From Heterodontus francisci (Eukaryota): 64,000 bases of DNA. The translations under genes were made by a program, and so were the position numbers. Below, piece by piece: positions 22,833 through 64,000 of the stretch. The stretch lies in the NCBI RefSeq assembly GCF_036365525.1, contig NW_027140807.1, positions 1,302,001-1,366,000 of the forward strand, in the 5' to 3' direction. The notes beneath the pieces are model-generated. The model did not search any database. It saw only the letters and a program-made list of their open reading frames with translations, and was not told the DNA's origin. Each line of letters opens with the position of its first letter. The stretch's first letter is position 1.

Positions 22833-23566
22833 ATGTTGCTTGAAGTTCTCAGTCTAATCTTGATGGCTGCACTCTTCCCACGTAAGTCAAAGTCTGAAAC
22901 TGTAGAATAATGTATTGCAATGTCAGCTGTGATTCTGTTCCATAACACTCCTGTGTCTGAGTCTCACTCCAGAACTCTTGAGCTCAAAGTCAAGGCTAAC
23001 ACCCCAGGTGTCAGGACTGAGGGAGTGCAGCACTGTCACAGAGGCAGTACTGAGGGGGTGCTGCACTGTCGCAGCGGCAGTACTGAGGGAGTGCTGCACT
23101 GTCGCAGAGGCAGTACTGAGGGAGTAACTACATTGGTTGCAAAGCCCTTTCTGATGTCCTGAGGTCCTGAGCGGCGCTACATTAATGCAAGGCCTTGCTA
23201 TCTTGCAATGCAGTCCCTTCTCCAATCCATTATTGACTGAAATAATAATCTAATCGATGTTCCGTCCCACAGGAATACTCGCCTCCTATGTGGAACAGTC
23301 ACCCTCGATCCTATCGATTGCAGCAGGAGAGTCGACAACACTCAGATGCACGCTGACCAATACTGCCTATTCCTATATGTACAGGCACAGACAACAACCA
23401 GACAGGGCACTGGAAGCTCTGTTCTATTCTGCTACAGAAGGGTCTGTTACCAATTACACGTCCGAGTCATTTAAGGCAGTCAGAGCCAGCGATACACTGT
23501 TTACTTTGGCACTGAGAGACGCCGCTCCATCTCACACCGCTGTCTATTTCTGCGCTTGCAGTATCG
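22833..23566 (+). CDS. TRBV: TCR beta V segment V9 (family E); open frame but conserved Trp replaced by Arg (ORF or possible pseudogene)
   Basis: Leader 22833-22881 (MLLEVLSLILMAALFP) and V exon 23273-23566. It reads MYRHRQQ instead of MYWYRQ (AGG at 23383-23385) and ends YFCACSI. RSS: CACAGTG 23567-23573, 23-bp spacer, GCAAAAACC 23597-23605. Confidence 0.88.
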
Positions 23567-23624
23567 CACAGTGTTTGAGAAAGCGGATCCGCAGCAGCAA
23601 AAACCTGCAGCGGATGAACGGGAG

Positions 23625-24115
23625 TTCAGTGCTCATCTTCCACCGGCAGGGGGCAGCAGCAGATTGTATCTCAATGCTCATTTTCCACCAGCAGGGGGCA
23701 GCAGTAGATTGAATCTCAGTTATCATCTTCCAACGGCAGAGGGGCAGCAGTAGATTGAATCTCAGTTATCATCTTCCACCGGCAGGGGCAGCAGTAGATT
23801 GAATCTCAGTGCTCATCATCCACTGGCAGGGGGCAGCAGTAGATTGAATCTCAGTGCTCATCTTCCCCCTGCAGGGGGCAGCAGTGGATTGAATCTCAGT
23901 GCTCAACTTCCACCGGCAGGAGGCAGCAGTAGATTGAATCTCAGTGCTCATCCTCCACCGGCAGGGAGCAGCAGTTGATTGAATCTCAGTGCTCATCTTC
24001 CACCGGCAGGGGGCAGTAGTAGATTGAATCTCAGTGCTCATCTTCCACCGGCAGGGGGCAGCAGTAGATTGAATCTCAGTGCTCATCTTCCACCGGCAGG
24101 GGGCAGCAGTAGACT
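23625..24115 (+). repeat. 45-bp minisatellite, 11 copies, each containing a CTCF-like core
   Basis: Unit GAATCTCAGTGCTCATCTTCCACCGGCAGGGGGCAGCAGTAGATT. Overlapping ORFs show the matching 15-aa periodicity. Confidence 0.95.
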
Positions 24116-26318
24116 GACTGCTCATTTTCTGCAACCAGTTCATGGAATCATCTTGGATAACAGAACAGAAGGAGACCATTCGGCCCATCTCCCCCGTACT
24201 GGCTTCTTTGAAAGAACTGTCCAGTTTATGCTCTTCCCCCCTGCTACTTCCCCATAGCCATGCACATTGATTCCATTCACGTGTGCAATCCATTGCCTTT
24301 TGAATGTTCATGTTCAAGGTGCTTCCAACACCCTTTCAGACAGTGCTAGCCACATCATAACAACTCGCTGCTTAAACAAATCATCACATCTCCCCCCTCC
24401 CCCCACTTATTCATCTGCCAGTTACATTTAATCAATGTCTCCTGGTTGCCTTCTGCCGAAAGAAGCAGCTTCTGTTCATTTATAGTTTTAAAATAATTAT
24501 TTATTGAGATGTGAGCATCGCTGACCAGTCCAACATTTGCTATCCATCCCAAATTGCCCTTGAGAAGGTGGTGGTGAGCTGCCTTCTTGAACCACTGCAG
24601 TCCATGTGGGGTAGGTCCACCCACGGTCCTGTTAGGAATGGAGTTCCAGGATTTTGACCCAGCGACAGTGAAGGAACGGCGATATAGTTCCAAGTCAGGA
24701 TGGCATGTGGCTTGAAGGAGAACCTGCAGTTGGTGATGTTCCCGTGCATCTGCTGTCCTTGTCCTTCTAGGTGTTGGAGGTCGTGGTTTTGGAAGGTGTT
24801 GTCGAAGGAGCCTTGGTGCATTGCTGCAGTGCATTTTCTATATAGTACACACTGCTGCCACTGTGCATCGGTGGTGGAGGGGTGAAAGTTTGTGAATGGG
24901 GTGCCAATCAAGCGGGCTGTTTTGTCCTGGATGGTATCGAGCTTCTTCAGTGTTGTTGGAGCCACACTCTAGTGGAGAGTATTCCAACACACTCCTGACT
25001 TGTACCTTATAGATGGTGGACAGGCTTTGGGGAGTCAGGAGGTGAGGTACTCAAGACTCAACGTGCGCTGCCTGAGTGGGTAGAACTGTCCTCTCTGAGT
25101 TAGAAGGACCCACTCCACAGACTGGAGCCAAGAAAAAGGCTGACACTTTAGTGCCAAAAAACTGCAGGTAAGTCAAAACAAATCCACCGAGCAAAAATGT
25201 CGTACCGAAATGCATGTTTCATACTATTTTCCCTGATTAAGCAGAATTAACGCACACAATTTTGAATGCAACACAAACGCAACAAATTGATGCTAAACCC
25301 TTTATAAAAAGCCTGTTTTGGCTTCAACCGGTGTGCTACGTCCACTTCTGTACATGACATTGTTGGGAGGATGCAGAGGGTGCAAAGGAGATTTACAAGG
25401 AGGTGACCGGGCGTGAGGGATTTCAGCTATGTGGAGATGTGGGAGAAGCTGTTCATTGTAACACACAAGGTTCCAAAAAGCCCCAGAACCCTATCCAGAA
25501 GGTTAGGGGTGCGATGCTGGACCACACCACTGCTCATTCAATCCACACACATTGGAATGTTTCCCATTCCATCCATGGTCTCCTCACTTCATGTCAAGTG
25601 CATCTATGGAATAGTTAACTTGTCACCCCACTCCTGGTCTAACCTTTAACATTTCCATTGTTACCGAGTCCTGATGGATATTTAAGAAAGAAAGTGAACA
25701 TTTACTCTTGTAACATCTCAGCTTTTCTGAAATGACCCTCCCAGCAATGCACACATCCCATCACTGAATACATTCAGATACAATTGGAAGTGAACAAGCT
25801 TGATAATGATGGTAGAGTGAGCATCTTTTCATGGTTATGAGGCTGCTGAGGGTGAGGCTGACACAGATGCTGGCGGTCGGGAGGAGGGTGACAATGTGGC
25901 CTCAGATGGTAATGATGAGTGTGAGGATGGTGTCAGGATGAATGTGGTTATGATCAGGGGAGTATTGAAGGTATTGATGATCCCAACACACCCGCTCATT
26001 TAATCACCTCTCCACCACAGAAGATAGTTTACATCACATTTACTCCCTTCCTTTCAGCAACTTTCAAAGACATGAAACAGAACTGCAGGCCCAGAAACCG
26101 ATGAGCTGAGGGTCAAACATTGGTCCCTCCCCAGAAATGACGAGTCCTCGGTGAGCCCATGAGCAAAGAAAGAAAGCTTGGCTCCGCATAGGCAAGTGTT
26201 GAAGATGATGGAGACGGAAGCTATAAATTCCAGTCAGTACCCAGAACTTTGGGGTACTCGACAATACAAGTGCTCAGTCATTTCATATAAAACCACACGG
26301 ATCCTTCACCCTCCAGAG

Positions 26319-33395: not shown

Positions 33396-33575
33396 GTGGA
33401 ATAACGGGAGATCTGGTGCTCACTTCATGTGATCAAGTGAGAGACAGTTTTCAGAACAGAAGGCTTCACACTGACATGTTGTGATATCCTCACTGCGCTG
33501 GTGAAGGGGCTGTATTAATCAGGTCTGTTCATTGAGGAGGTGAAACTCAGTATGTTGAGGTTTTCAGAGCGGGTT
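33396..33575 (+). pseudogene. TRBV: Second copy of the decayed V3-like relic
   Basis: Near-identical to 28808-28985. It keeps the AG acceptor at 33394-33395 and is truncated at a SINE fragment. Confidence 0.7.
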
Positions 33576-39782: not shown

Positions 39783-39869
39783 CACAGTGATTCAAACAGG
39801 TGCAGGGCTGGGTCAAAAACATACCACCCTCTTATACTGTGAGCTGTTAGAGAGGAAAATTCAAGTAGG

Positions 39870-41005: not shown

Positions 41006-41760
41006 TTATACTTTCCAGGAGAGATCATAAAGTCAACCGTTCATGGATGGAGCTTTGAGAAGTTTTCCAAACCCAGCAGAGTGTGGGATATTCCAATAGA
41101 TTCTAAGTGCTCCCTGAGTGACAGTTCAATATCCAAAGACTCATTTCAGTACTTTCCAAAGCAGAGGAAATAATCTGCAGATAAGTTGAAAATCATAGAG
41201 GGCAGAGGAGGCTATTCGGCCCATTGTTCCTGTGCCAACATTTTGAAAGATCTACTTGTTTCATCCCACTCTACACTCTATCCTCAATGGGTGGCAGATA
41301 TTTCCTGTTCAAATATACATCCCAATCTCTTTTGAAAGTGACTGTTGAATCTGCTTCCTCCATCCTTTCAGGCAGTGCATTCCTGATCAGAATAACTCAC
41401 CAAGTTAAAGAAAAAACTCCTAATCTTCCCTCTTCCTCTTTTGTGAATCCTTTAATTCTTGTCCTCTCTTTACCGACCCTTCTGCCACTGCAAACAGTTT
41501 CTCCTTATTTACTCTGTCTAAACCCTTCCTGATTTTGAACCTCACTATCAAATCTCCTCCTAACCATCTCTGCTCTCCGGAGAACAGTCCCAGTTTCTGC
41601 ATTACTAAAAGTGCTGTCCTGTGATTGGAAATCTTTATCAGGGGACGCCTTGTTTGACTGTCTGCTCACTGCGCTCCTGAGATACCGAGCGGTGAAATGA
41701 GGTCTCCCCCAGGAGTTTCGACAATCACTTCAGGTGAGATATATCTCTATAAAGCACATC

Positions 41761-43000
41761 TAGAGTCATACAGTTACACAGCACAGAAGCAGGCCATTCT
41801 GCCCATCCTGTCTGTGCTGGCCATAAAGGACCTGACTATATTAATCAAATTTTGCAGCACGTGGCCCGTAGCGTTGTATGCTATGGCGTTACAAGTTCTC
41901 ATCTAAATACTTCTGAAATGTTGTGAGGGTTCCTGCCTCTCCCACCTCTTCAGGCAGTGTGTTCTAGATTCCAACCACCCTCTGTGTGAAGCATTTTTTC
42001 ATGAAATCCCCTCTAAACCTCCTGCTTCTTACCTTAAATCTATGCCACCTGGTTATTGACCCCTCCAAGAACGGGATAAATGCCTTCCTAACTAACCTAT
42101 CAGGACCCCGCATAATTTCAAAAAAGACAATAATGTAACCCCTCAGAATGCTCTGCTCTGAGGAAAACGACCATAGTGTTTTCAGTCTCTCTTCACAGCT
42201 GAAATGCTCCATCCCAGGCAACATCCTGGTGAATCTCCTCTGCACCCTCTCCAGTGCAATCACATCCTTCCTATAGTGTGGTGCCCAGAACTGTACACAT
42301 TACTCCAGATGTGGCCTAACTAGTGTTTTATACAGCTCCATCATAACCTCCCTGTTCTTATATTCTATACCTCGGTTGATAAAGGCAAGTATCGCATATA
42401 CCTTCCTAACCACCTTATCTACCTGTGCTGCTGCCTTCAGTGATCTATGGACAAGTACACCAAGATCCCTCTGACACCCTGTACTTCCTCGGGTCCTACC
42501 ATCCATTGGATATTCCCTTGCCTTGTTAGTCCTCCCAAAATGCATTACCTCACAATTCCCAGGATTAAACTCCATTTGCCACTGCTCTGCCCATCCTACC
42601 AGCCCATCTATACTGTCCTGTAATCTAAGGCTTTCCTCCTCACTGTTTGCGACACCACCAATTTTTGTGTCATCTGCGAACTTACGTAACATACCTCCTA
42701 TATTCACACTTCATTCATTAATGTACACCACAAACAGCAAGGGTCCCAGCACTGATCCCTGTGGTACACCACTGTTCACAGGATTCCACTCAGAAAAAAA
42801 ACCCTCGACCATCACCCTCTGCCTCCTGCGAAGAAACCAATTTTGAATCCATTTTCCCAAACTGCCCTGGATCCCATGGGCTCTGACCTTCCTAACCAAT
42901 CTCCCATGCGGGACTTTATCAAAAGCCATGTAGACTATATCAACTGCTTGACCCTTATCTATACATCTAGTCACCGCCACGAAAAATTCAATCAAGTTGG
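41761..43000 (-). mobile_element. 5'-truncated CR1 LINE inserted upstream of the V13 promoter
   Basis: AFDKVPHGRL, GVPQGSVLGPLLF and KFADDTK. The flanks rejoin to match the empty site upstream of V12. Confidence 0.92.
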
Positions 43001-43159
43001 TATATATGTCAACCATTCCAATCGTTATGCATATTCCCAAACCCTGCAATAGATGGGACTTTGCAAGTCAATCCTGTGTAATTCTATTTTTCACACCCAC
43101 ACATCGGAAAGAAACATCTGCTTTGTTGGATACACAAGGAAGGTTCTATTCGTTGCCCT

Positions 43160-43215
43160 TGCAATGACGTCACTTCCGCACTGCATCACAAAAGCAGGCT
43201 GTGCACCAATAGGAC
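43160..43215 (+). promoter_or_regulatory. V13 promoter: CRE palindrome overlapping an ETS motif, plus a CCAAT box
   Basis: TGACGTCA at 43165-43172 runs into CACTTCCG, and CCAAT lies near 43206. CRE-like decamers are the known conserved element of mammalian Vbeta promoters. Confidence 0.65.
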
Positions 43216-43276
43216 TGCAGTGTGTGAGAGCGGGACGAAGCTGGAAGGTTGAAAGAAGGGTTCACATTCCTGCATC

Positions 43277-43938
43277 ATGCTGTGTACTGTTTACCTCCAT
43301 CTACTGTTTCTGCTGCTCCCAGGTTACTGCTCCTACTTGGAGGGAAATTCAGGCCCCAGTTAATCAGCTTTGAGACACAATTCCTGTTGATATCGAAGGG
43401 CTCCAATCAGTTAGAGATTTACTGGTTTGGTTTTACTGTTGAGGACAAGTGTCGTTATTTAGCACCGCTGCAGTTGTGCCCAGCGATTCTGGGAATCAGC
43501 ACATGACCCCTGTGCTGGGGCGGCAGCGAGCTGATCGACTGTGGTGTGCATCGTGAGCTTTACCATTAAATCTCTCTCTCTCTCCTTATTGTGTCTGTTC
43601 TCTTTGACCCGATCTGTTTCTTATGTTCCTCCACAGCCCGGTCCAGGAGCGCTCTCGTTACCCAGTGGGGGAACCGGCTGACGGTCGCAGAGGGGAAAAC
43701 GGTGGAAATGCACTGTTTCCAGAATGACACCAGCGACAGTTACATGTACTGGTATCGCCAGCAGAGCGGAGCAGGGTTACTGCTCATAGTGACCTCGATT
43801 GGCACCTCTGATTCCAGCCCTGAAGAGGGTTTCAAGGAGAGATTTAAGGTCACCAGACCCGATCTTAAAACCTGCAGCCTGAAAATACTGAGGGTGGATC
43901 AGACTGACAGGGCGGTGTATTACTGTGCTGCTAGTGAT
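43277..43938 (+). CDS. TRBV: TCR beta V segment V13 (family F), most D-proximal, apparently functional
   Basis: Leader 43277-43322 and V exon 43637-43938. RSS: CACAGTG 43939-43945, 23-bp spacer, TCAAAAACA 43969-43977. Confidence 0.94.
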
Positions 43939-44484
43939 CACAGTGATTCAAACAGGTGCAGGGCTGGGTCAAAAACATACCACCCTCTTATACTGTGAGT
44001 GTTCGAGAGGAAAACTCAAGTAAGCAGAGTTCATAAAGACAGCTGTTCATTGATGAAACTTTGCAGAGTTTTCCATCAACTTTCAGAGTGTAGATATTTC
44101 CTGTTCAAATATATTTCCCAATCTCCTTTCTAAGTTACTGTTGAATCTGCTTGCTCCATCCTTTCAGGCATCGCATTCCTGATCAGAATAACTCAACAAG
44201 TTAAAAGAAAAATCTCTTCGTCTGTGCTGGTGTTGTCTGTGTGAGTCTGCATCTGTATCTTACAGCTTGCAAGCAGCTCTTAAAGTGATAAATAGATGGC
44301 TTGGTTCTGCTGAAAGATAGAGCTATCAAAGTCCCGATGGATAGATACATCTTATTATCTTAGAATATCACCCTGTACCATTTAAACTGAACATTGTTGT
44401 GTTTATCACAAATTTTACCCAACCTTGATCATCAGGTTAGCAATCAAGTTACTGCCACTTATCATCGATATTCCTAATCACAGA

Positions 44485-46185: not shown

Positions 46186-48818
46186 TCAAGTCTGCTCAAG
46201 AGCGGTTAGACTTGGAAATAAACGTAGCCCTCGCCAGCCCACATCCCGTAACAGAACAGAAATAAACCAATTGCGGTTACTTGATCTACAACAGGGCCCA
46301 GGCATGAGGTGTGGAAAGCACCAAAATGTCAGGCCCAAAGTCCCTGTTCCTCCCAAGCAGGCAACTCTTGTCACATGTCATGTCTCAACTTAATCCCAAA
46401 ATGTTCCTCACTGAAGGAAATCTATCAAATCTGGATATGGATGGATCAATACCACGAGGCAAACACAGTCTTAGGGCCCCTATTGAATAAAGAATGACCG
46501 GTGTCTCATTGACATACTTCCACATGTCATGTTAAACCTCTTCAACACTGACCTGTTGAGATGATAACCAGCCTGCTCTTGACAGAATTCCCTGGTGTAC
46601 CGGGAGGAATTTGTCCCAGGGCAGTTCCAACTCCAACACAGCCATATAAGTAGGGTTTGCTTGACTGGAACCCGGTCTGCAGTGAGAATGCACCCATAGA
46701 GATAACAGATAAGGTTCACCGTCTCCCAATAGCTTGGTTGTCATGCTTCATATGCCAAAGGGTGGAGAATAGTTTTACTTTTATTGAATAAAGGCAATGA
46801 TGTCAAGTTGTTCCTTTCTGATCTGTACACATTATAGCATCACAGAAAGATTCAACACAAAGGAGATCATCCCGTCTCTGCTTGCTTTTGTGAAAAATCT
46901 ATCCAGTTAGTCCCACTCTCCTGCCCTTTTGCCCTAGCCCTGGAAATCTTCTGCTCCAAGGATCTATCCAATTCCCTTTTGAAAGCGGAATCCCATTCCA
47001 CTGCCGTTTCAGGCGATGCGTTCAAGATCGATAATACCCGTCCCACTCAGAATCTTTCTCCTCGTCCCGCTTCTGGTTCTTTTGCCACTGACCCTAAATC
47101 AGCGCCTCCCTGGTTAGCGACCTTCCTGCCTCAGAAAACAGCTTCTCCCTGTTCAATTTATCAAAATCCTTCCTGATTTCCAACACCACCTTCCGCTGGG
47201 TCCCTTAACCTTCTCTGCTCTGATTATAATTCTTTCCGATCGCCTGGAAATTGCACTGAAATCGACAAACTTCCCTTATCAAGATCTGGTTTGGCCTGTA
47301 ACTGGCTTCAGGGTTTGCCATGACGTGACTTCATGGTCAAGTGAAACACGGGTTAGACCGGAAGAGAAAGATAATATTTTAGACCGTATGTGCTGTGATG
47401 ACACAATGATCTGACACTGCAAACGCGCAGGAACCACTTACATCAGAACATTAGAAAATAGGAGCAGGAGTAAGCCATTCGGCCCGCCGTGTCTGCTCCT
47501 CCACATAATGAAGATCTTGAGGATCTGCTACCTTCACTCCACTTTCCCGCCATATTCCTACATCCCTGGATTCCCTTGGTGCCTAAAATCTATGGATCTC
47601 ATGTCTTCAATTTTCTCAATGACTGAGAATTCCACAGCTCTCTGAATTCCAAAGAGTCATAACCCTCTGAGTGAAGACATTCCTCCTCATCTAAGTGTTG
47701 TAGATGGACCCCTTATCCTGAAGCTTCTTCCCCTTATTTCTAGGTTCTCCAGCCAGGGGGGAAGCAGCCTCTCAGTGTGTACCCTGTCAAACACTCTCAT
47801 AATTTTGTACGTTTCAAATGGATCACCTCTGATTCTTCCAGAGAATAACAGCCCATTCGACTCAATTTCTCCTCATTGGGCAGCCTTCTCCTCCTTGGAA
47901 CCAATTGAGTGAACCTTCGTTGCAACCTCCTCTAAGGCAAATACATGCTTCCGTAGATAAGGAGAGCAACACTCGACACAACACTATATTTGTTTTGTTA
48001 CCAAAGTCCCAACTAGCTGCAGAAAGATTTCCTTACTCTTATGTTTCAAACGCCTTACAATAAAAGCTAACATGTTACTCGCCTTCCTAATTCCTTGTTG
48101 TACATTGATGTAAAATTGCTCTCATTCATATACACGGGTCCCTCTTGCAATATCAATAATGGGAAGAATGTTGTTATTGAAATTACTCACCCTGTTGCTC
48201 GACCACTTTTACTACAGACCCAGATATTTTCAGATTGGACTGGAGTTCCCGAAATCTACAACATTCCGTCATTTCTTTTCTTTAGCTTTTATGAAGTGGA
48301 AGACTTTTAATGGGCTCCTGACGGTCAGATGTCCTCCAGCCTTTACGGATTCGAGATGCTGTGCACATTTCCAACCTCCATTATGCCAGTGGAGTCGAAA
48401 GTGAGTTCCTTAGCTGATGTGTTCTCTGAGGATTGAAGCAAAATTGCAGGGACGCAGATCAGAAGTCTTTTCCACGTGCCAACAAGATAGTAACCCTGTA
48501 CTTGCAGGGTCCAAGATCGAGCAGCGTTATAAAACTCCCGGTCGGCACCCTGTCTCGAAATTTCAATGTGAGGTGAATGCACATAACCAGGAATGAATTC
48601 CAACTGATGCATCTTGGATCCAATACTGGTAGCGGAGGGGTGAGTTTCGCTCCACTTGTCACCATCTGGTCATCTTTGCACATGGCAATAAATAATCCTA
48701 CATCTCACTGGAAGTAGGTAGCATTGATCACACTCCGGCTGCGACTCGGTAACGCCAGAAGAATGATCCAAATGGTGAATGGTGATGAAAATTATTCAGA
48801 CTTCATCGTATTCCCTCT

Positions 48819-48930
48819 GCGGCCGCCAGAGGGCGCGATCACTCGCTGAATGGAAATTCATTGTCTGACATCTGCTCGAATTCCATTTGCAGCCACGAGA
48901 TCTGCAGAGTACTGCGCCATCTCCTGGTGG
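48819..48930. promoter_or_regulatory. Pair of oppositely oriented CTCF-consensus motifs in the V-D interval
   Basis: GGCCGCCAGAGGGCGC on + at 48821-48836, and CCACCAGGAGATGGCGCAGT on - at 48911-48930. Confidence 0.6.
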
Positions 48931-50251
48931 AAACCGAGAATGACCAGATAATCTGTTTTAGTAAAGTTGGTTCAGGGATGTCTATTGCCCCAGATAACCC
49001 TCGAGAATGCCCCTGTTATTCTCCGAAATAGTGGCTATGAGATCCTTCCCATCTGCAGTCGGGACCTCGTTTTAACATCTCAGCCAAAATAAAGAGAGTA
49101 CCTCGGTGCTACACCTCCACACGGTGCAGCACTTCCTCTGTCCTGCACTGGGGGTGTCAGCCTCGTTTTTATGCTTAAATCTCGGTCCGGGGACTTAAAC
49201 CCACAAACCTCTGACTCAGTGCCGAGGTGCTCCCCACTAAACCACTTCTGATATTTAAAGACACATCAGAGGAAGTGGTCAGTCATACAAGATGCTTTGA
49301 GGTTCTCCCATCTGTGGAGATGATGAATACTGCACGGCCTTTTGAAACAACCAGCACTCTGTGGACTAATCAGGAAACCAAGAGTCGGATACACATATCT
49401 TGATGAGGTAACAGAGAGGGTTAATGAGGGTAATGCGGCTGATGTGGTGTACATGAACTTCAAAAAAAGCGTTTCAAAAAGTACTACATAACAGGCTTGT
49501 CAGCAAAGTTAAAGCCCATGGAATAAAAGGGGCATTAGCAACATGGATACAAAGCAACATGGAACAGAGTAGTGGTAAACAGTTGGTGTTCAGTCTGAAA
49601 GAAGGTATATAGTGGGGTTCTCCAGGGACCACTGCTTGTCTTGATCGATATTAATAACCTAGACTTGTGTGTGCAGGGCACAATTGCAAACTTTGCAGTT
49701 TTGTGAACCGTGAGGAGGATGGTGATAGATTTTAAGAGGACGTTACATCAAGCGACAGCATACAAGTGCTGAAAACTAGAGCAACAGGACGCGAAATCCC
49801 GATCGTGACAAATTCGAATCAAATTTTCTGTGACGAGTTTAATTCGTGTCCCCCCGTGGAAGAAACGTAAATCAAAACTGCCGACAGAATCCGTTTCTGG
49901 AAGACATGTTCCAAGTCATAAGCCTCCTGTTCACAGGTCAGCACGAGCGTGTAATTAAACAGCTGCAGTTTGCATTTAAATAGCGACTTCACCGTCCCGA
50001 GATAAACGGCCCGAACAGCGTAAATCTGCCAACTATTTGACACAGGGTTACAGCTGAAATTGTTAGGAGGTGTGGGCCAAAGCCGGGCAGGTTTGGAGGA
50101 GAGAGATGTGGAGGGGGTTTGGGAGGGAATGGCAGAGCTGAGGTCGCTGTCAGAGGAAGGAACGGCCGAGAAATGAAGAAGTGATCAGGATTAGTGGAGC
50201 AATAGCGCCACTTACCGCCCATCGATCGCCAATGCAGCCAACTTCGTCAAT

Positions 50252-51065
50252 TCAGTACTGAGGGAGTGCTGCACTGTTGGAGGGTCAGTACTGAGGGAGT
50301 GCTGCACTGTCAGAGGGTCAGTACTGAGGGAGTGCTGCACTGTTGGAGGGTCAGTACTGAGTGAGTGCTGCACTGTCAGAGTGTCAGTACTGAGGGAGTG
50401 CCGCACCATCAGATGGTCAGCACTGAGGGAGTGCTGCACTGTCAGAGGGTCAGTACTGAGGGAGTGCTGCACAGTCAGAGTGTCAGTACTGAGCGAGTGC
50501 TGCACTGTCCGAGGGTCAGTACTGAGGGAGTGCTGCACTGTCAGAGGGTTAGTACTGAGGGAGTGCTGCACTGTCAGAGGGTCAATACTGAGGGAGCACT
50601 GCACTGTCAGAGTGTCTGTACTGAGGGAGTGCTGCACTGTCAGAGTGTCAGTACTGAGGGAGTGCCGCACCGTCAGATGGTCAGCACTGAGGGAGTGCTG
50701 CACTGTCAGAGGGTCAGTACTGAGGGTGCACTGCACTGTCAGAGGGTCAGTACTGAGGGAGTGCTGCTCTGTCAGAGTGTCAGTACTGAGGGAGTGCTGC
50801 ACTCTAAGAGGGTCAGTACTGAGGGAGTGCTGCACTGTCAGAGTGTCCGTACTGAGGGAGTGCTGCACTGTCAGAGGGTCAGTACTGAGGGAGTGCCGCA
50901 CTGTCAGAGGGTCAGTAGTGAGGGAGTGCTGTACTGTCAGAGTGTCAGTACTGAGGAATTGCTGCACTGTCCGAGGGTCAGTACTGAGGGAGTGCTGTAC
51001 TCTCAAAGGATCAGTACTGTGGGATTGCTGCACTTTCAGAGGGTCAGTACAGAGGGAGTGCTGAA
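50252..51065 (+). repeat. 33-bp minisatellite, about 25 copies
   Basis: Unit GTCAGTACTGAGGGAGTGCTGCACTGTCAGAGG. About 3-4 related copies lie in the V9 intron (23010-23125). Confidence 0.95.
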
Positions 51066-52411: not shown

Positions 52412-53870
52412 AATGGCCTCCTCCTGTTCCGGTGTAACAGATTCAAGAGGGGCTGAATGTCCTCCTCCTGTTCCTGTGTAACAGGCTCGAGAGGGGCTGA
52501 ATGTCCTCCTTCTTTTCCTGTGTAACACAATGGAGAGGGGCTGAATGTCCTCCTCCTGTTCCTGTGTAACAGACTGGAGAGGGGCTGAATGTCCTCCTCC
52601 TGTTCCTGTGTAACAGACTGGAGAGGGGCTGAATGTCCTCCTCCTGTTCCTGTGTAACAGGCTCGAGTGGGGTTGAATGTCCTCCTCCTGTTCCTGTGTG
52701 GCAGACTGGAGAGGGGCTGAATGTCCTCCTCCTGTTCCTGTGTAGCAGGCTGGAGAAGGGCTGAATATCCACCTTCTGTTCCTGTGTAACAGGCTCGAGA
52801 GGGGCTGAATGTCCTCCTCCTGTTCCTGTGTAACAGGCTCGAGAGGGGCTGAATGTCCTCCTTCTGTTCCTGTGTAACACACTGGAGAGGGGCTGAATGT
52901 CCTCCTCCTGTTCCTGTGTAACAGACTGGAGAGGGGTTGAATGTCCTCCTCCTGTTCCTGTGTAACAGACTGGAGAGGGGCTGAATGTCCTCCTCCTGTT
53001 CCTGTGTAACTGGCTCGAGAGGGGCTGAATGTCCTCCTCCTGTTCCTGTGTGGCAGACTGGAGAGGTGCTGAATGTCCTCCTCCTGTTCATGTGTAACAG
53101 ACTGCATTGGGGCTGAATGTCCCCCTCCTGTTCCTTTGTAGCAGGCTCGAGAGGGGCTGAATGTCCTCCTTCTGTTACTGTGTAACACACTGGAGAGGGG
53201 CTGAATGTCCTCCTCCTGTTCCTGTGTAACAGACTGGAGAGGGGTTGAATGTCCTCCTCCTGTTCCTGTGTAACAGACTGGAGAGGGGCTGAATGTCCTC
53301 CTCCTGTTCCTGTGTAACTGGCTCGAGAGGGGCTGAATGTCCTCCTCCTGTTCCTGTGTAACAGGCTCGAGAGGGGCTGAATGTCCTCCTTCTGTTCCTG
53401 TGTAACACACTGGAGAGGGGCTGAATGTCCTCCTCCTGTTCCTGTGTAACAGACTGGAGAGGGGTTGAATGTCCTCCTCCTGTTCCTGTGTAACAGACTG
53501 GAGAGGGGCTGAATGTCCTCCTCCTGTTCCTGTGTAACTGGCTCGAGAGGGGCTGAATGTCCTCCTCCTGTTCCTGTGTGGCAGACTGGAGAGGTGCTGA
53601 ATGTCCTCCTCCTGTTCATGTGTAACAGACTGCATTGGGGCTGAATGTCCCCCTCCTGTTCCTTTGTAGCAGGCTCGAGAGGGGCTGAATGTCCTCCTTC
53701 TGTTACTGTGTAACACACTGGAGAGGGGCTGAATGTCCTCCTCCTGTTCCTGTGTAACAGACTGGAGAGGGGTTGAATGTCCTCCTCCTGTTCCTGTGTA
53801 ACAGACTGGAGAGGGGTTGAATGTCCTCCTCCTGTTCATGTGAAACAGATTTGAGAGGGGCTGAATGCCC
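52412..53870 (+). repeat. 44-bp minisatellite, about 33 copies visible, immediately upstream of D
   Basis: Unit CCTCCTCCTGTTCCTGTGTAACAGACTGGAGAGGGGCTGAATGT. The 5' end runs into an N gap. Confidence 0.95.
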
Positions 53871-54014
53871 TTTAATTGTGCTACAAAGGTCTAACTAAAT
53901 TTCAGCAGCTCAATCTCAACTGCCGTCACCAGGTGAAAGCCTCGGGAGCCGTTTAAGCGGCGGGGACTTGTAAATTTCGCGTTCCTCTTTTTTGTATGAG
54001 TGTCTATCACTGTG

Positions 54015-54027
54015 GGGACAACAGGGA
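54015..54027 (+). other. TRBD: TCR beta D segment GGGACAACAGGGA (open in all 3 frames: GTTG / GQQG / DNR)
   Basis: 5' 12-RSS: CTTTTTTGT 53987-53995, 12-bp spacer, CACTGTG 54008-54014. 3' 23-RSS: CACGGTG 54028-54034, 23-bp spacer, ACAAAAACC 54058-54066. The GGGACA core is shared with vertebrate Dbeta. Confidence 0.97.
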
Positions 54028-54552
54028 CACGGTGATAAAATCCAATGCAACCTCCGTACAAAAACCTCGCTCTACACACCTGGTGGAGGATCAGCAGAAG
54101 AGCAGTGACAACAGAGTAAAGGAGTCAACATGGCCCAGGATTATGGCGGGAACTGGGCCCTTTTCATCTTAAAGATGTCTCAGAATGGTCCAGCCTTATA
54201 AGTTAGAATATTCCTCTGGAAAAGAGAATAACTGTGTGTCATTTGTGTGGAAACTGGTAACTCTTTAACCTTTAAACCCCACCCTGGTGTCCTGGGACCA
54301 ATATTGATCCCTCAACCAACATCACAAACAATGATCTGCTCATTAATCTCACTATTGTTTGATGGGACTTTCTTGGTACAATATCAGTTGCTGTGTCTCC
54401 CTGTGGTGACCACTTCATAAACAAACTGCTTCATTGGCTGTAAGCTGCTTTGTACGTCCTGATAATCTTGACCAGTGCTTCCGAAATGCTGAGCAGGTCA
54501 GTTTTAGCAATCAGTTTCCGACCGGGTTGATGTAACGAGATCTGCTGACGTG

Positions 54553-54603
54553 CTAACAACGCACCACTCAACTTCGGGACCGGCACCAAACTGACGGTGT
54601 TAG
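54553..54603 (+). CDS. TRBJ: J1: NNAPLNFGTGTKLTVL
   Basis: FGxG motif and phase-1 GT donor. 12-RSS: GGTTGATGT 54525-54533, TGACGTG 54546-54552. Confidence 0.92.
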
Positions 54604-54845
54604 GTAAGAAAAAGGGACGTTTTTTTCCCACTCCCTTCATGTCCAGCTGTTTGCATTCCAAGCTTGTTCTGCCACAACCCTCCGCGGGCGGTTTAAAAAG
54701 TCAGGCTGATGACACTGGCCCTTCTTTCTGGTTTGCAAAGACCAGTCCAATATGACCCTCGTCTGTAAACCACCCCGTCCTGTCTCGTTCAGTTACAAGG
54801 GGAACATCTCCCGGGTCTGTTCATGACTGAGTTTAGAGCATCGTG

Positions 54846-54893
54846 CAGCAGAGATAGCTTACTTTGGCGATGGGACCAAGTTGACAGTGTTGG
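54846..54893 (+). CDS. TRBJ: J2: AEIAYFGDGTKLTVL
   Basis: FGxG motif and GT donor. Heptamer CATCGTG 54839-54845; weak nonamer TGTTCATGA 54818-54826. Confidence 0.9.
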
Positions 54894-55507
54894 GTAAGGC
54901 GACTATGTATTTCTGTTCCTCCAATCGATCAGAATCTATGTTCAGTTAAAAAAGCACCAGGAGTAATGTTCAGATATTAGATACATTAAAGGGTTAACTC
55001 ATGAGGACTGGTTACTCAGACGAAGCTGACAGTCCCTCGAATATAGAATTTTAAGGGCTGATATCATGGAGGGGTTTGAGGTGTTGGATAGATAGAGAGA
55101 GAAACTGCTTCCTCAGGTTGCGGGGAGTCCAGAACAGTTTAAATTATTGCCATTCAGGGATGATATCAGGAAGCACTTCTTCATGCAAAGGTTAGTGGAA
55201 ATGATGGATTCCACCCCGACCCCATAAAAAACAATCAGTTGAGACTGAGGGTCAATTGATAAATACAAATCCAAGATTGATAGAGCTGTGTAAAACAAAA
55301 GTATTGAGGGTTACAGAACCAAGGCGGATTGATGGAGTTAAGATTCAGATCAACCTTGATCGAACTGATCAAAGGGCTGAACGGTCACCTTCTGTCCCCA
55401 TGTTCCACCGACCTTTACGGTCATTGACATAATAGGAACTTCAATGGAACAGACTTAACAGTCGAGAGGGATTGAAGGGGATTTTGTGACAGCCCCATAC
55501 CAGTGTG

Positions 55508-55557
55508 CTCCAATTACGAAGCATATTTCGGAGATGGGACCAAACTGGTGGTTTTAG
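55508..55557 (+). CDS. TRBJ: J3: SNYEAYFGDGTKLVVL
   Basis: Heptamer CAGTGTG 55501-55507, 12-bp spacer, nonamer GATTTTGTG, GT donor. Confidence 0.93.
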
Positions 55558-57066
55558 GTGAGTGAATGCATTCCTAACACTGGAAAAGTTGATTCAATTT
55601 GGGAATTCACGTGAGGTGGTCGAGGGGGTGAAAATATAGAAATTTGGTGAATTAATTTCAATTCTTCAGCTTACAAGGGGAGACCTACAACTGCCGAATT
55701 CGTTTCACTGCAGGGAAGGGTTTTGAGTAGATACATAAGGGAGGGTCGCGAAAATAAACAGAACAAACAGTAATGTAGATACAAATAGAATGATTGCGCT
55801 TGTGAGAGCAAAACAAGAGGACACAGACATAGAACGAAAAATGTCAGATTGCATCGTTCAGTATGCAGTTCTGGTCTGCATATTATAAAATAAATGATGT
55901 AGAGGCTCTGGATGAGGTAAAACAAAACAGATTAACAGCTGTGCTGCCCAAACTGGGACGTTGGAACGATTGGAGAAGGTCGGACAGACTGGGACTCCGT
56001 TCTCGAGAGCAGTAAAGTTTAAGGGGTGACCTGGTAGAGTTCTGTACGATTTTGAAAGGGGTTTCGATAGGGTAGACACACCGAAGTTTTTTCCACTTGT
56101 GGGGAGACCAGAACGGGGAGAGCATAAATGTCAGACACTCAGTAATAAATTCAAAAGGGAATTCAGGAGAAATTTCTTTACCCAGACAGTGGTGCGAATG
56201 TGGAACTCACTACCACAAGGAGTGGGTTTAAAAAAGTAGATTGGATAAAAAAAATTGGATTAAATGAAGGGGATGAGGGGAGTCTCAAGTGGAGTGTAAA
56301 CACTGGTATGGAGCAGATGGGCTGAATGGCCTGTTTGTGTGTTGTAAATTCTATGTAATTCTATATATTCCCTCTTGGCCTCGTGCGGCAATGGATGAAA
56401 CTGTTTTGAGACACACTATTTTCAAGTTACTAATCGAACTGGTGAGCTATCCATATCCAGTGGACAATGAGGTGTCAAGGGCCCCATGACCTTTCCTCAT
56501 TCACCAGGATAATACCGGAATCAAAATAATTTAATTTATGACGATGTGTTGTTTAAAGTAGGGTTGCAGTAAATTGAGAATTGGAGATTCAGGAGTGATC
56601 CAATTGATGTGTTTAAGATAATGATAGGATCTGATATTTCCTCTGGTGTGACGGGTCCAGAACAAGAGAGCAAAACCTTAAACTGATAGCTTGACCATTC
56701 AGGAGTGATGTCAAGAAGGACCTGTTTACAAAATGCCCTGTGGAATCCAGAAATCTCTCCCACAGAAAGCTGAGGGAGTCAGTCGAAAATTTCAAATGTG
56801 TGGTTGATGATTTTTTGATCGGCAAAGATGCTAAAGGTTATGGAACCAAGAGGGCAGGTCGAAGGCGTTAAGGTACAATTGATTTATAATCTAATTAAAT
56901 GTCGGAATAAGCACGAAGGGCTGAATGGTCTACTCCTGTTCCCCAGTTGCTATGTTCCTTTGGACAAAATTTCCTTATACTTGTCGGTTCTCCCTTATTA
57001 TGAGGGGCTCCTTCGGAAAAGGACTCAAAGACAGGAGATGTTTTAATACATGAGTTTATCATTGTG

Positions 57067-57116
57067 CTCTGGTGACATTTATTATTTCGGAGCTGGGACT
57101 AAACTCACTGTTTTAG
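57067..57116 (+). CDS. TRBJ: J4: SGDIYYFGAGTKLTVL
   Basis: Heptamer CATTGTG 57060-57066, nonamer TGTTTTAAT 57039-57047, GT donor. Confidence 0.93.
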
Positions 57117-57327
57117 GTAAGATTATGTTTGCACATGTAGATATTTATATATGTAAACATCTCTTTTCATCTGTAAGTCTTTCTATTTCTTTATCTATCA
57201 ATGTACCTATCTATTTGTTGGTCTGTGGATCCATCTGTCTGTCTGTTTGTCCATCTACTTATCTATTTGTCTGTCCATACATCTGTCTACCCATCGTTGT
57301 ATTTTGGTATTGTTGTTTAGTGCAGTG

Positions 57328-57384
57328 CGGGCGGGTATACCAACCTGCTACATTTTGGGGACGGGTCCAAGTTGACGATTTTGG
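57328..57384 (+). CDS. TRBJ: J5: GGYTNLLHFGDGSKLTIL
   Basis: Heptamer TGCAGTG 57321-57327, nonamer TATTTTGGT 57300-57308, GT donor. Confidence 0.9.
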
Positions 57385-57728
57385 GTGAGTTCAGTTTCTT
57401 TGTTTTCAATGAAGCAAGGGTCACCTGTAAACATCTTGCAAGAAGGATTGAATGAATAATTGGGAGGGACTTAGAGAAAATCTCCTATTGTCAGGACTGC
57501 CACGGTGGATAACTGACTAACAGGTCCATATTTAGACGGGGCAGACAGTCTTGGGAATTCTGAGAGTTATAACTGCAAACTGCCTGGTTAGTCCACGAGT
57601 TTACATTAACTTACAGTAAGCTTGCGTTAACCAGAGGCCACTATCAAATATTAAGGAATGGGGCAGTGAATTTCTTTTCTTCCAGAAGAGAGTTGGGGAA
57701 TGTTTTTGTGATGTGAGGTGATGATGTG

Positions 57729-57787
57729 GGAGCAGGGAGTATTCAGCCTTGTGTATTTTGGAGATGGCTCTAAATTAACAGTCCTGG
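57729..57787 (+). CDS. TRBJ: J6: EQGVFSLVYFGDGSKLTVL
   Basis: Heptamer TGATGTG 57722-57728, nonamer TGTTTTTGT 57701-57709, GT donor. Confidence 0.9.
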
Positions 57788-58527
57788 GTAAGTGAGATGT
57801 TCGTCAAAATATGTCTCTTACTAGCATTGCAAACGTCGACTAGTTTAGTCTCTTCAATTTAAAGAAAGGAGAGAGAATGTGAAAACAGGCAAAAGAGTAA
57901 GCATTGCATTGAAGAAGCAAGAATTTAAATAGCTAAATGTAGGAGATTGGAGGAGGGCTGGTGAGAGAGGAATTTACAACCAGAGATCATGGCTGATCTG
58001 ATGTTGGCCTCGATCCCTCTTTCCTACCTGTTCTCCATAATCCTTGGCTCTGCTCTCTATCTCAGTTTGAATGCATTCACGGACTCAGCCTCCACAGCGC
58101 TGTGGAGTAGGGAATTCCAAAGATTCACGACTCCCTGATCGAAGAAATTCCTCCTCCACTCCGTCCTAAATGAGCGACCCCTCATTCTGAAACTGCGCCC
58201 TTTAATTCTACAGGGGAACATCCTCTCAGCATTTACCCTGTCAAGCGCCCTCTGAATCTTAGAATTTCCCAGACCATCATCCCCCATTCTTCTTCACTCC
58301 AGATGGAGAGCAAACATCAGACAAAACTGGAGGGAGATGGGAAATTAGATTTAAAACAGTGAAAAAGAGACAGAGACAAGGAGATCAATTGTAACAGAAT
58401 ATAAGATAAAGAGCAATAGGGTGGAATAATGAATATAACACAAGGCAAAATGTTCCAACTATGTTCATTAACTATTGTGTATCGAGTTAAAGAAACGCGA
58501 GTTCTGATACAAAAGTGTAACATTGCG

Positions 58528-58579
58528 TCAGGCAACGATGGTTATACTTTTGGGGGTAATTCAAAACTCATGGTTTTAG
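58528..58579 (+). pseudogene. TRBJ: J7: SGNDGYTFGGNSKLMVL, probably non-functional
   Basis: FGxG is altered to FGGN, and heptamer CATTGCG 58521-58527 breaks the invariant GTG/CAC. Confidence 0.82.
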
Positions 58580-59943
58580 GTAAGTGAGATAGAATCGAAT
58601 TAGCTCTTTAAAGGAAAGTGGAATCAGAGGGATGTCTAGTTGAAATTTAAAATTATTCAAACCTAGTTGTGGATATGAGGACCTTATATATAAACATACA
58701 CCTTGTATTTGTGTTCCGGCTTCATGCATTACTTCCGAGCCCCATATGGAATATTTCCTGAAACAAACTAGAGACGTATTGTGCATGTGGAAATCGACAT
58801 GTGATAAGTACCTTGGATATCAGAGGTTGAATGGCCTAATCCAGTCCCTAATGTAGCTAAATCGGCGTAATGCGAGTTGATGATAGGAGTGAGGTACAGG
58901 GACAAATACGTGACAATCAAGAAGTTTAGAATAAAGAGTTGAGGAAGCTGGAAAGTACCTTCGTTAAAGAAGGATTGACGAGGAGTTGAGCAAGGGAGTT
59001 AAGCTGAACCTCGATGAATCGCTGGTTAGGTCCCAGCTGGAGAATTGTGGGTGTCACATGTTAGGATGGATGTCAAGGCCTTAGAGTGGTTGCACGAATG
59101 ATTTATTCGACTGGTTCCAGCGATGAGGGTCTTCAGTTGCGTCTAGAGACTAGAGCAGAGAAAGTTTAGGGGGGATTTGACAGAGGTGTCCAAAGCAATG
59201 AAGGCTTTGGACACAGTACATGCTCAGAAACAATTTCCAATGCTCGAAGCGTTGGTAAACAAAGGGCACAGAGTTAAGGTAATTGACAAAATAAACAGGG
59301 GTGATATGAAGAATAAAACAATTATGCGGTGTGTTGTTATCTGGAATGCGCTGCCTGAAAGGGTGGTGCAAACAGACTCAATAGTAACTTTCAAAAGGGG
59401 GACTGGACAATTACTTGAAGGGGAAATTATTTCTACTGGTGGATGGGTCAATAAACAAAGGTCAGATATTTAAAATCATTGACAAAAGATCTACAATCGA
59501 GATCATTAAAGGGCTGATATAATCGAGGAGCTTGAGGTGTTGGATAGATAGAGAGAAACTGCTTCTTCAGGTTGGGGGGAGTCCAGAACGATTTAAATTC
59601 GAGCCGTTCAGGGGTGATATCAGGAACTCTCCCCGCACCCCCCACAACAAAATAATATACTGTTGAGGCTGGGCGTCGATTGATAAGTTCAAATTCAAGA
59701 TTGTTAGATTTTTGTTAAACAGAAGTATTGACAGTTACAGAACCAAGGTGGGATGATAGAGTTAAGATTCAGAACAACCCTGATCTAACTGCATGGTGGA
59801 ACAGGCTCGAAGGGCTGAACGGCCACCTCCTGTCCACATGTTCCTACGCCCTTTACGGGCCATTGAAACAGTCAGAACTTCAATGGAATAGACTTAACAA
59901 TCTAGACTGGAGGGGGATTTTGCGACAGCCCCATACCATTGTG

Positions 59944-59993
59944 TAATGCGAGAGAAGCATATTTCGGAGATGGGACCAAACTGGTGGTTTTAG
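59944..59993 (+). CDS. TRBJ: J8: NAREAYFGDGTKLVVL
   Basis: Heptamer CATTGTG 59937-59943, nonamer GATTTTGCG, GT donor. Paralogue of J3. Confidence 0.93.
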
Positions 59994-61528
59994 GTGAGTG
60001 AATGCCTTCCTAACACTGGAAAAGTTGATTCAATTCGGGAATTCACGTGGGGTGGTCGTGGGAGTGAATATTTAGGAATTCGGTGAATTAATTTCGACTC
60101 TTGGGCTTAAAAAGGGAGACCTACAACTGCTGAATTCATTTGGAAAGGAGTTTGAGTGGGGACATAAGGGAGGGTCTCTAAAATAAACAGTACAAACAGC
60201 AATGTAGTTCCAAATGAGAACAGAACAAGAGGACACAGACACAGAACGAAAACTGTCAGATTCAATTCTTCAGTATGCCGTTATGGACTGCATATGATTA
60301 AAAAGCAGAGGCTCTGGATAGAGCAAAACAAAACATATTTACAAGTGTGCTCCCAAAATTGAGAGGATATAACCACAGGTCAAGAATGAAGAGGCTGGTG
60401 CTGTTTTCTCCAGAAAAGAGAAGGCAGAGGGGATAACCTGATCGAGGTCTTTAAGATTATGACAGAGGCAAGATGATTCCACTTGTTGAGGAGACCAGAA
60501 CCAGGGGACCATCAATATAAGACAGTCACTAATAAATCAAATATGGAATTCAGGAGAAGCCTTTTCAACCAGAGAGTGGCGAGAATGTGGAACTCACTAC
60601 CACAGGGAGTGGGCTGAGGCGAATAGCAGAGATGTATTTAAGAGGGAAGCTGGATAAACATATGGGGGAGAAAGGAATAAAATGACCTTTTAAAAGGATG
60701 GGGTGAGATGAAGAGGGTGTGAGAAGGATCATGTGGAGCATTTAATCGGCTAGGACGTAGTGGGCTGAATGGTCTGGTTCGCTGCTGAATCTTCGATGTT
60801 ATTTGATGTATTCCCCATTATCCTGAAGCGTTTGAATGGATGAGAAGTATCAAAGGGGATTTTTTTGTTTGTGAATGGACACTGGGTGTTGAATGCACAT
60901 TGAACGGCCTGGGGAACGTGAGCTGAAAGTCCAGGGCAGATTGCGAATGATCTTTCCTCATTTACCAGAATGATGCCGGGATTAAATTATGGGGGCAGGT
61001 TGCTTGGAGATGTTGAGCATTGGAGATTAAGGATTGATCCAACTGATGTGTTTAAGATAATGAGAGGATTCGATAGGGCAGATAGAGCTGCAATTTACGC
61101 GGGTGTCAGAGCCCAGAGCAAGGGTGAGGGTGGAGGGGAGCATTAGCTTAACATTAAAGCTTGGCCGTTCAGGGGTGATGCCAGAAAGGACATAACTGAA
61201 CAAACGGTGATGGAAATCTGGGCCTCTCTCCGCTATGAAACTGCTGAGGCCACAGGGTCAATTGTCACTTCCCAATCTGAGAATGATAGAGCGTTGTTAG
61301 GAAAAGGGTCTGGAACACAAACAGGCTAATGGGGTTACAATACAGATGATTCATGACCTCACTGAATGTCAGAACAAGCTCGACGGGCTGAATGGCCTAC
61401 TCCAGCTACAGTATTTCTATGTTCCTTTGTGCCAATACTCCTGTAGGTTCTTTCTAGTTGTGAAAGGCTCCTTCAGGACAAGAATCAGAGAGAGGTGAGA
61501 GGTTTTGATGCAGGGATTTAGCTTTGTG

Positions 61529-61578
61529 CTCTTCTGATATTTACTACTTCGGAGCTGGTACCAAGTTAACTGTTTTAG
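61529..61578 (+). CDS. TRBJ: J9: SSDIYYFGAGTKLTVL
   Basis: Heptamer CTTTGTG 61522-61528, nonamer GGTTTTGAT 61501-61509. Paralogue of J4. Confidence 0.93.
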
Positions 61579-61733
61579 GTACGTTAGCATCTATATAAAC
61601 ATCTATTGTTCCATCATCCACAATGTATCGGTCTGTGTATCCATCTTTATGTTTATCGATCTACGTAGCTACTTTTCTGTCGGTGTATCGGTCTATCCAA
61701 AGGTGTGTTTTGGTAATGTTGTTCAGCATAGTG

Positions 61734-61790
61734 CAGGCGGGAGCGACCAGCCTTTACATTTTGGAGAAGGTTCGGCTCTAACAGTATTGG
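61734..61790 (+). CDS. TRBJ: J10: GGSDQPLHFGEGSALTVL
   Basis: Heptamer CATAGTG 61727-61733, nonamer TGTTTTGGT 61706-61714. Paralogue of J5. Confidence 0.92.
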
Positions 61791-62340
61791 GTGAGTTAGA
61801 CCTTCATTCAATGAAGCCAGGGATGCTGGGTTCATCTTGTCTGTGCAGGCTGGTGGTCATCTGATGTACTGGCTCTCTGCTCCTTTTCTCCAGCAGGAGA
61901 GAGGAGCATGAATGTGGAGCAGTGTCTATGAGGAGGCTTCCCCTTGCCTTCCCCAGACACGGTGAGAAATGAACCCGTTCTGTAAGCATTGTTCTAACTG
62001 GCACGTTCGCCACCTGAGCTATCTGGTCCCCAACTTGTGTGTACAAGTTAATTAATAATTATGAACAACTCCATGTAAAATCTTCCAGTATTATAAGCAC
62101 TGTATCTGTGGACATCTAACATATTCACAGATGGATGGATAGACGGTACTGTGAATGTTGCTGGCTTTAATGGTCAGGCCCCCTCTCCCCCACCTCCCCA
62201 CCCGGTTATTTTATGCGTGTACTTTGTTGTATGGTCAGCTCATGTTAGTCAAAGGGCAATATCAAATATTAATGAGATGGACACTGAAAACTGGCAGGGC
62301 GCTATTGAGGAATGTTTTCGTGTGGTCACATGATGATGTG

Positions 62341-62398
62341 GGTGCAGGAAATACCCAGCTATCATATTTTGGAGACGGCACTAAGTTAACACTCCTGG
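62341..62398 (+). CDS. TRBJ: J11: GAGNTQLSYFGDGTKLTLL
   Basis: Heptamer TGATGTG 62334-62340, nonamer TGTTTTCGT 62313-62321. Paralogue of J6. Confidence 0.92.
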
Positions 62399-62831
62399 GT
62401 GAGTGAGATATTTGTTGAAACATATCAGTGGTCTCAGTAATTATTAAAACTGTCGGCCAGTTTGTCCCCATCAGTTTGAAGAAAGGGGAGAGACCATAAA
62501 CTTTAGAAAAAAACAAAGAGTAACGAAGCAACAGTTAAAACAACTAAACATAGGGCAATGGCGAGGTGGAAATGGAGGAAGGTTAGGGAGGCAAACCTTA
62601 TCTACAGAGAGACAGATTGGGAGCAAAATGCAGGGAAAAGGGGACGGAAAATTAGAGAGACAAAGATGGGAGAGGTCGAGACAAAGACAAAAGAAATAAC
62701 AAAAAGAGGTAAAGAGGGAAAGGGCGGGGTAACAAATGCAACCCAATACAAAACGATGCAACTGCGCTTAATTAACCGGCGTGTAGAGAGTTAAAGATTC
62801 CCTAGCTTTGTTACAACTGTGTAACATTGTG

Positions 62832-62883
62832 TCAGGGAACAATGACTATACATTTGGCGATGGCACAAACCTCGTGGTTTTAG
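62832..62883 (+). CDS. TRBJ: J12: SGNNDYTFGDGTNLVVL
   Basis: Heptamer CATTGTG 62825-62831, nonamer AGCTTTGTT. Intact paralogue of J7. Confidence 0.92.
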
Positions 62884-63930
62884 GTAACTGATTAACGTGG
62901 CGTCAGTGAGAATCATTCCGCACGGTCTGATATGGTATAGTCTGATTGAAATTTACAAGATTAATATATGAAGATAACACTAATCATATTGCCTATTCAG
63001 GTGACATCCGTTTCTTAACAATGACCGATTGTGTGTGTGGAAATCAACAAGTGATAGCTGTCTGGGAAATCAGACTCTGAATGGCCTACCCCTGTCCCGA
63101 ATGTTACTCTATTGGTTTAATGCGAGGAGTGAGATAGAGAGTGAGCTTGGTCAAAAAAAGGGTCAAGATGTTTGAAGTGACCAGTTGATGATGCTGGAAC
63201 GCACCATTATTGGTTAAGAATTCACGAGGTGTTGAGTGAGGAAGTGAGGATTAACATTTACAAATCACTGGTAAGGTCCCAGCTGGAGTATTGTGTTCAG
63301 TCCTGGGTACCACACTTTATGACGGTTGTCGAGGCCTTAGATTGGGAGCAGAAATGATTCACCAGAATTGTACCAGAGATGAGGGACCTCAGATAGTTGG
63401 AGAGACTGGAGAACAGAAAAGGTTAAATGGAGATTGAATAGAGGTGTTCAAATTAGTGAAGGTTTTGGATAGAATTAATAATCAGAAACAGTCTCCATTG
63501 GTAGATGGGTCGGTAACCAGAGGACACAGGTTTTGAGGCAATTGACATAAAGGACCAGTGGCGGGATGAAGAGACATTCTCCCACAGAGGTAGTTACTGG
63601 ATCGGGAAGGCATATCTGAACTGGTGGTGGAAGTTGGTTCAGTAGAAACTTTCAAAATGGAAATTGATAGATACTCGAAGGGAAATATACAGGACGATGG
63701 TAAAACCTTTCATAAAGCCAGCAGAGGTCCTATGGGCCGAATGGTCTCCCCTTCAGTGATGGATATTTCTGATTCTATGACCTTGCTCGTGAGCCACAAA
63801 TGTAAATTAGGAGATATATAAACTAAGGAGATGTGATCTACAAACGCTTTCGAGGACAGGGTCCAAGTGTGATATAGACAAGACCTGCACCTCGCCTTGT
63901 GAGGTTTTGTTACAAGGGTCTCTCACTGTG

Positions 63931-63980
63931 TTCTGGCAATCAATATTACTTCGGAAGCGGTACCAAGTTAGTTGTGACAG
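63931..63980 (+). CDS. TRBJ: J13: SGNQYYFGSGTKLVVT
   Basis: Heptamer CACTGTG 63924-63930, nonamer GGTTTTGTT 63903-63911, GTGAGT donor. Confidence 0.95.
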
Positions 63981-64000
63981 GTGAGTCCAGGAATGTTAGG

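Follow-up and report, generated by a model that had tools for sequence, protein, structure and literature searches.

A candidate CTCF boundary element between the V and D segments of a likely shark TCR-beta locus

Two CTCF-type motifs that face each other across 73 bp lie between the last V segment and the single D segment of a shark locus that is likely of the TCR-beta type. [quoted passage not shown] The analysis was carried out on a single window, meaning the whole 64-kb stretch of DNA (64,000 nucleotides). Knowledge of V(D)J control by CTCF comes almost wholly from mouse, and we found no paper describing CTCF sites at the antigen-receptor loci of sharks in the literature we searched, which mostly did not extend to subscription journals.

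The convergent motif pair

The motifs and the segments that flank them are as follows.

48820..48838, plus strand: CTCF motif 1, 20.7 bits, p 6e-8, facing downstream to D-J
48839..48911, unstranded: spacer between the convergent motifs, 73 bp, under nucleosome length
48912..48930, minus strand: CTCF motif 2, 16.9 bits, p 1e-6, facing upstream to the V genes
43648..43977, plus strand: V13 and its 23-RSS, the most D-proximal V, Pfam V-set E 2.6e-17
53987..54066, plus strand: the single D (core 54,015-54,027), with a 5' 12-RSS and a 3' 23-RSS

Motifs were scored with a JASPAR-type CTCF count matrix that has a maximum of 27.5 bits. On this scale, motifs 1 and 2 are the sole sites of at least 14 bits outside tandem arrays in the window. 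The pair sits 4,881 bp 3' of the V13 heptamer and 5,085 bp 5' of D, in agreement with a sequence-only reading of this DNA that had placed both motifs 4.9 kb past V13 and 5.1 kb ahead of D. The same reading gave their separation as about 80 bp, and we measured a gap of 73 bp for the 19-mers and of 77 bp for the cores. It had further described motif 1 as consensus-perfect and motif 2 as carrying one mismatch. When compared with the IUPAC consensus CCASYAGRKGGCRS, the count for motif 2 is the same, and motif 1 is found to carry one mismatch as well. The opposite orientation that had been proposed for the two motifs is correct: a plus site is followed by a minus site, such that the motifs are convergent and head-to-head, and the plus site at 48,820-48,838 does face D-J as had been described.

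An upstream CTCF module in register is absent at both motifs, and no long inverted repeat joins them, as judged from the longest 25 of 49 pairs. Scanning metagenomes for both motifs, with the gap left variable, gave no matches, a result that is uninformative for a vertebrate element.

Simulated and shuffled sequences were used to determine how often random strings produce such a pair. With thresholds chosen post hoc as the observed motif scores, two sites of at least 16.9 bits within 200 bp were seen in none of 2,000 simulated 10-kb intervals at each of three Markov orders (0 of 6,000 overall). In a matrix-free check, which allowed at most one mismatch to the IUPAC consensus, a sequence of 7,161 bp was shuffled 3,000 times with its dinucleotides preserved; one shuffle contained a pair no more than 200 bp apart, and 231 contained at least one match. 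These nulls represent random strings and do not reproduce the background set by genuine CTCF sites, of which vertebrate genomes contain many.

It is conceivable that the motifs are unbound or non-functional, being either chance matches or the GC-rich remains of an unrecognised insertion. One site of at least 16.9 bits does occur in about 3% of the random 10-kb intervals (64, 65, and 69 per 2,000 for the three orders), the pair was picked out of a very large scan, and motif 1 includes several CpGs that are potentially methylated. Nevertheless, the near absence of pairs from the simulations and shuffles, together with the p-value of motif 1, makes this explanation improbable. The strength and pairing of the motifs, which are far above random expectation, instead favor a role as a boundary.

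The locus and the V-D interval

Three further features define the setting of the pair.

23281..23605, plus strand: V9 and its 23-RSS, of a TCR-beta V family, with a YVEQSP start
48150..49040, unstranded: CpG-retaining stretch bearing the pair, present once in the window
54555..64000, plus strand: J cluster, with nine J by motif scan and a probable tenth near 61.8 kb

An RSS scan combined with a V profile derived from the window's own sequence revealed 13 V segments from 1.7 to 44.0 kb, every one on the plus strand; together with the single D, this bears out the earlier count of 13 V and one D. Twelve of the 13 carry a canonical 23-RSS, the exception being V5 with its altered heptamer. The V segments have 23-RSSs, D has 12/23 signals, and the J segments have 12-RSSs, although this layout by itself would suit TCR-delta equally. 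PDB matches confirm an Ig/TCR V domain and nothing narrower, a protein search meant to place the species gave no hits, and the D core resembles mammalian TRBD. The locus is likely of the shark TCR-beta type because the start and end peptides of V9 correspond to the peptides of primers reported for nurse-shark TCR-beta V2/V3 (PMC5931798). V9 itself may be non-functional, given that its conserved Trp is replaced by Arg. No further V relics were detected in the V-D gap by profile search, and neither a C exon nor the enhancer was seen within the 64-kb window.

Three other V segments are likely defective: V4 (12,538-12,804), whose 5' half is interrupted; V5 (14,091-14,420), whose heptamer lacks the initial C; and V6 (16,941-17,231), which has a stop at the conserved Trp position. 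Recent segmental duplications, found by BLAST within the window at about 64-92% identity, account for the V1/V10/V11 family (1-2,169, 26,072-28,988, and 29,496-33,577), the V4-V8 family (12,739-21,456), the V12/V13 family (39,287-44,022), and pairs of J segments (55,050-61,822).

The stretch that carries the pair (48,150-49,040) was picked after looking, and its CpG observed/expected ratio is 0.70, whereas 61 tiles have a median of 0.40. The local ratio is 0.85 over 300 bp, a value reached by 3 of 193 tiles, and 0.77 when the motifs are left out. Such CpG retention fits low methylation, but it would fit a young insertion too. A LINE-like fragment lies upstream of the stretch, and downstream is what we take to be a SINE-like repeat. 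The suggestion that the pair occupies non-repetitive DNA holds inside the window, where no BLAST copy of the stretch was found. An nhmmer comparison of the stretch with the window gave only a weak match, to the array behind V9 (E 0.003).

Searches of the carrier stretch for recognizable elements were largely negative. When 14 of 33 local ORFs were compared with Pfam, no transposon or coding domain emerged beyond one sub-threshold Trefoil match (E 0.017), and a protein search with 48,462-48,704 produced no match. There was likewise no Rfam match in the carrier stretch, and none of the longest 25 of the 49 pairs was a terminal inverted repeat of MITE type. The region 48,346-48,669 had one match, P0001, a protein of bacterial type that contains six internal repeats, but this candidate was rejected because the best single match reached only 30 bits and the E-value was derived from summed repeats. 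Parts of 48,500-49,035 were also present in 6 of the 12 sequencing runs listed (one organism and one sample), where the best run shared 0.56 of 55 words and no RNA run was listed among the holders; none of the 12 could be identified as a ChIP or ATAC library, and these data were not used as evidence.

The remainder of the interval has features of its own. A CpG-rich patch at 49,780-50,250, 1 kb downstream of the pair, has an observed/expected ratio of about 1.0 (the top 300-bp tile) and no BLAST copies in the window, and it may be a promoter or another kind of regulatory element ahead of D. Two long minisatellites, at 50,252-51,063 (33 bp x 25) and 52,412-53,871 (44 bp x 33), take up the DNA from the pair to D and end about 115 bp before the D 12-RSS, in a stretch that contains assembly gaps.

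The V9 array and the proposed loops

A candidate loop partner for motif 2 lies directly behind V9.

23626..24117, plus strand: 45-bp tandem array, 11 units with a CTCF-like motif

This feature had previously been called an 11-site array. There are indeed 11 units, all with plus-strand motifs, but only 7 of the 11 score strongly (at least 15.9 bits), with the other four at 12.9, 10.4, 9.0, and -2.7 bits. The consensus is matched with at most one mismatch in six of the units. Motif 2 is convergent with the array at a distance of 24,822-25,272 bp, consistent with the loop of about 25 kb that had been suggested. The first array motif begins 34 bp past the V9 nonamer (23,567-24,117), and this closeness is reminiscent of the RSS-adjacent CBEs of proximal mouse VH genes.

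Among the 15 sites of at least 11.9 bits in the window, 14 are on the plus strand and motif 2 is the lone minus site. This bias is suggestive only, since eight of the plus sites belong to one array and four to two duplicated pairs, leaving about five that are independent, and three minus sites fall just below the cut at 11.5-11.6 bits. The strong sites on the V side are all plus but come from one array, and the weak sites are near chance level. Downstream of the pair, no minus site of at least 12 bits was found as far as position 64,000, such that the plus site has no partner in the window. Separately, duplicated moderate motifs of 13.7 and 13.8 bits are located on the plus strand at 28,382-28,400 and 32,956-32,974, about 1.4 kb 3' of V10 and V11. 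These have a 9-mer like that of the upstream module in the expected register, with one mismatch, and the motif at 28,382-28,400 overlaps a faint V-like translation (profile iE 2.5).

Part of the array also resembles one member of the pair. The region around motif 2 (48,870-48,975, minus strand) aligns with array units 1-3 (23,610-23,760, plus strand) over about 59 nt, past the CTCF core, with a score of 44 versus a control mean of about 23 (reached by 4-12 of 3,000 controls). Motif 2 and the array may thus have a common origin in a shared CTCF-carrying element. The array itself is a minisatellite that is probably young, given that its units match at about 90%, and the locus is compact. All of this would suit an element that is bound by CTCF yet is generic or lineage-specific, having arisen from a repeat or local duplication and having no special role at TCR-beta. 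However, the likeness was found post hoc and drops to a score of 34 for units 9-11 (reached by 72-128 of 3,000 controls), and motif 1 shows no such likeness to the array (1,851 of 3,000 controls reach its score). The lack of a Pfam transposon domain in the ORFs compared and of another copy in the window also weighs against a generic site, as does the agreement of the reverse site with mouse CBE1 in position and orientation. We therefore regard generic sites as less likely than a boundary role.

For the pair to act as a Tcrb-type boundary, CTCF would bind both motifs, as we infer. By the established convergence rule, cohesin that approaches from the V side would then be halted at the minus site, and cohesin that approaches from D-J-C would be halted at the plus site. 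The minus site would pair with plus sites on the V side, such as the V9 array 25 kb away, which would draw V genes near D-J and damp the over-use of V13 and V12. The plus site would confine enhancer activity, with a partner that would lie beyond the window. Given the head-to-head arrangement of the motifs, the two loops would come to a stop within one shared gap of 73 bp and may be mutually exclusive, a situation that would differ from that at divergent pairs. Since opposite sites would halt cohesin from each side, a convergent pair is still a potential two-way boundary.

In favor of a boundary, motif 2, the lone strong reverse site in the window, falls in the V-D interval, and every strong site on the V side is in the sense orientation. 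Against it, the order of the sites is reversed relative to both mouse CBE1/CBE2 and IGCR1, and the array adjoins a V segment without the conserved Trp. Moreover, loops are perhaps less needed in this locus because V1 lies only 52 kb from D, compared with the 670 kb reported for mouse Tcrb (PMC10772921).

A more elaborate proposal can also be made, which we consider a long shot. The pair could be the shark form of a boundary that dates from the first jawed vertebrates and works as a head-to-head toggle. Loops from the V side and from the D-J-C side would compete for one 73-bp cohesin stop, and the locus would switch back and forth from a sealed D-to-J state to one that engages V genes, the latter anchored at a CTCF minisatellite that grew behind V9 from the same element.

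If the pair is bound and conserved, the Tcrb layout, in which sense V sites face a reverse site before Dβ, would predate the split between cartilaginous and bony fish. It would also be present even in a compact locus and thus would be more than an adaptation to loci of megabase size. If the pair is bound but not conserved, it would be one among many ordinary CTCF sites. The earlier suggestion that such control may reach as far back as cartilaginous fish has one sequence from one assembly as its basis. The 110-bp element and the 500-bp array are small and direct experimental targets.

Comparison with known CTCF elements

The sequence-only reading had labeled the pair IGCR1-like, and there is a likeness in that two oppositely oriented CTCF motifs lie between V and D, which in principle would permit a two-way barrier. 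A true IGCR1 counterpart would seal D-J in its own loop, block RAG scanning to proximal V segments, and enforce D-to-J joining first. IGCR1, however, is reported to depend for its function on divergently oriented CBEs (PMC4995090), whereas the shark motifs converge at 73 bp, and so the label does not fit. IGCR1 belongs to Igh and has demonstrated effects on rearrangement order and proximal V use, whereas the shark pair is predicted and belongs to a likely TCR-beta locus. No minus site of at least 12 bits that could serve as a convergent anchor and close a D-J loop is present downstream within the window, and mouse Tcrb is described as employing diffusion-based synapsis in addition to scanning (PMC10772921). 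Therefore, we consider a true counterpart of IGCR1 very unlikely.

The INT1-INT2 elements of Tcra/d, with which the pair had also been compared, are likewise an intergenic CTCF pair upstream of D, with one site facing downstream (PMC4995090; PMC7696796). This parallel is loose: INT1 and INT2 are reported to be 5 kb apart (PMC7696796), versus 73 bp in the shark, and a convergent partner of INT2 is known at TEA, whereas none lies in the window for the shark plus site. In spacing, the pair is more like the doubly bound class termed 2xCTS, described as motif pairs less than 100 bp apart (PMC5973138). The shark pair has two robust motifs with a 73-bp gap, within this limit, and its double occupancy is putative. 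BORIS arose in amniotes, and thus only the CTCF-CTCF form could apply to a shark pair of this type. In another cartilaginous fish, the skate, a CTCF orientation code has been reported for TADs (PMC10115646).

Mouse Tcrb is the closer comparison, being the same type of locus. There, 18 sense V CBEs are reported to be convergent with 5'PC and CBE1 (PMC10772921; PMC5859386), which are located 27 and 3 kb, respectively, ahead of Dβ1 (PMC10772921), and a sense CBE2 is described between CBE1 and Dβ1 (bioRxiv 10.1101/2024.10.13.618029). According to the same preprint, deletion of CBE1 or 5'PC shifts V use to proximal segments, and CBE1 acts as an insulator of upstream genes against Eβ (bioRxiv 10.1101/2024.10.13.618029). 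Upstream of the Dβ1 promoter, a region that has a pair of weak CTCF sites is described as a chromatin barrier (PMC4291525).

Several differences from the mouse arrangement are apparent. In mouse, the reverse CBE1 is followed by the sense CBE2, and the two are divergent; in the shark, the sense site is 73 bp upstream of the reverse site, and the two are convergent. CBE1 and CBE2 are described as low-intensity sites (PMC4291525), whereas the shark motifs score high. Neither a second reverse site like 5'PC nor trypsinogen genes came to notice in the 10-kb V-D interval of the shark. Even so, the two loci are alike in having a reverse site before Dβ (3 kb in mouse and 5.1 kb in shark), a second site of opposite orientation nearby, and perhaps a V side with sense sites, those that are strong in the shark coming from one array. 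The description that suits the shark pair best is therefore that of a candidate Tcrb-type boundary of variant geometry, and not that of an IGCR1 element.
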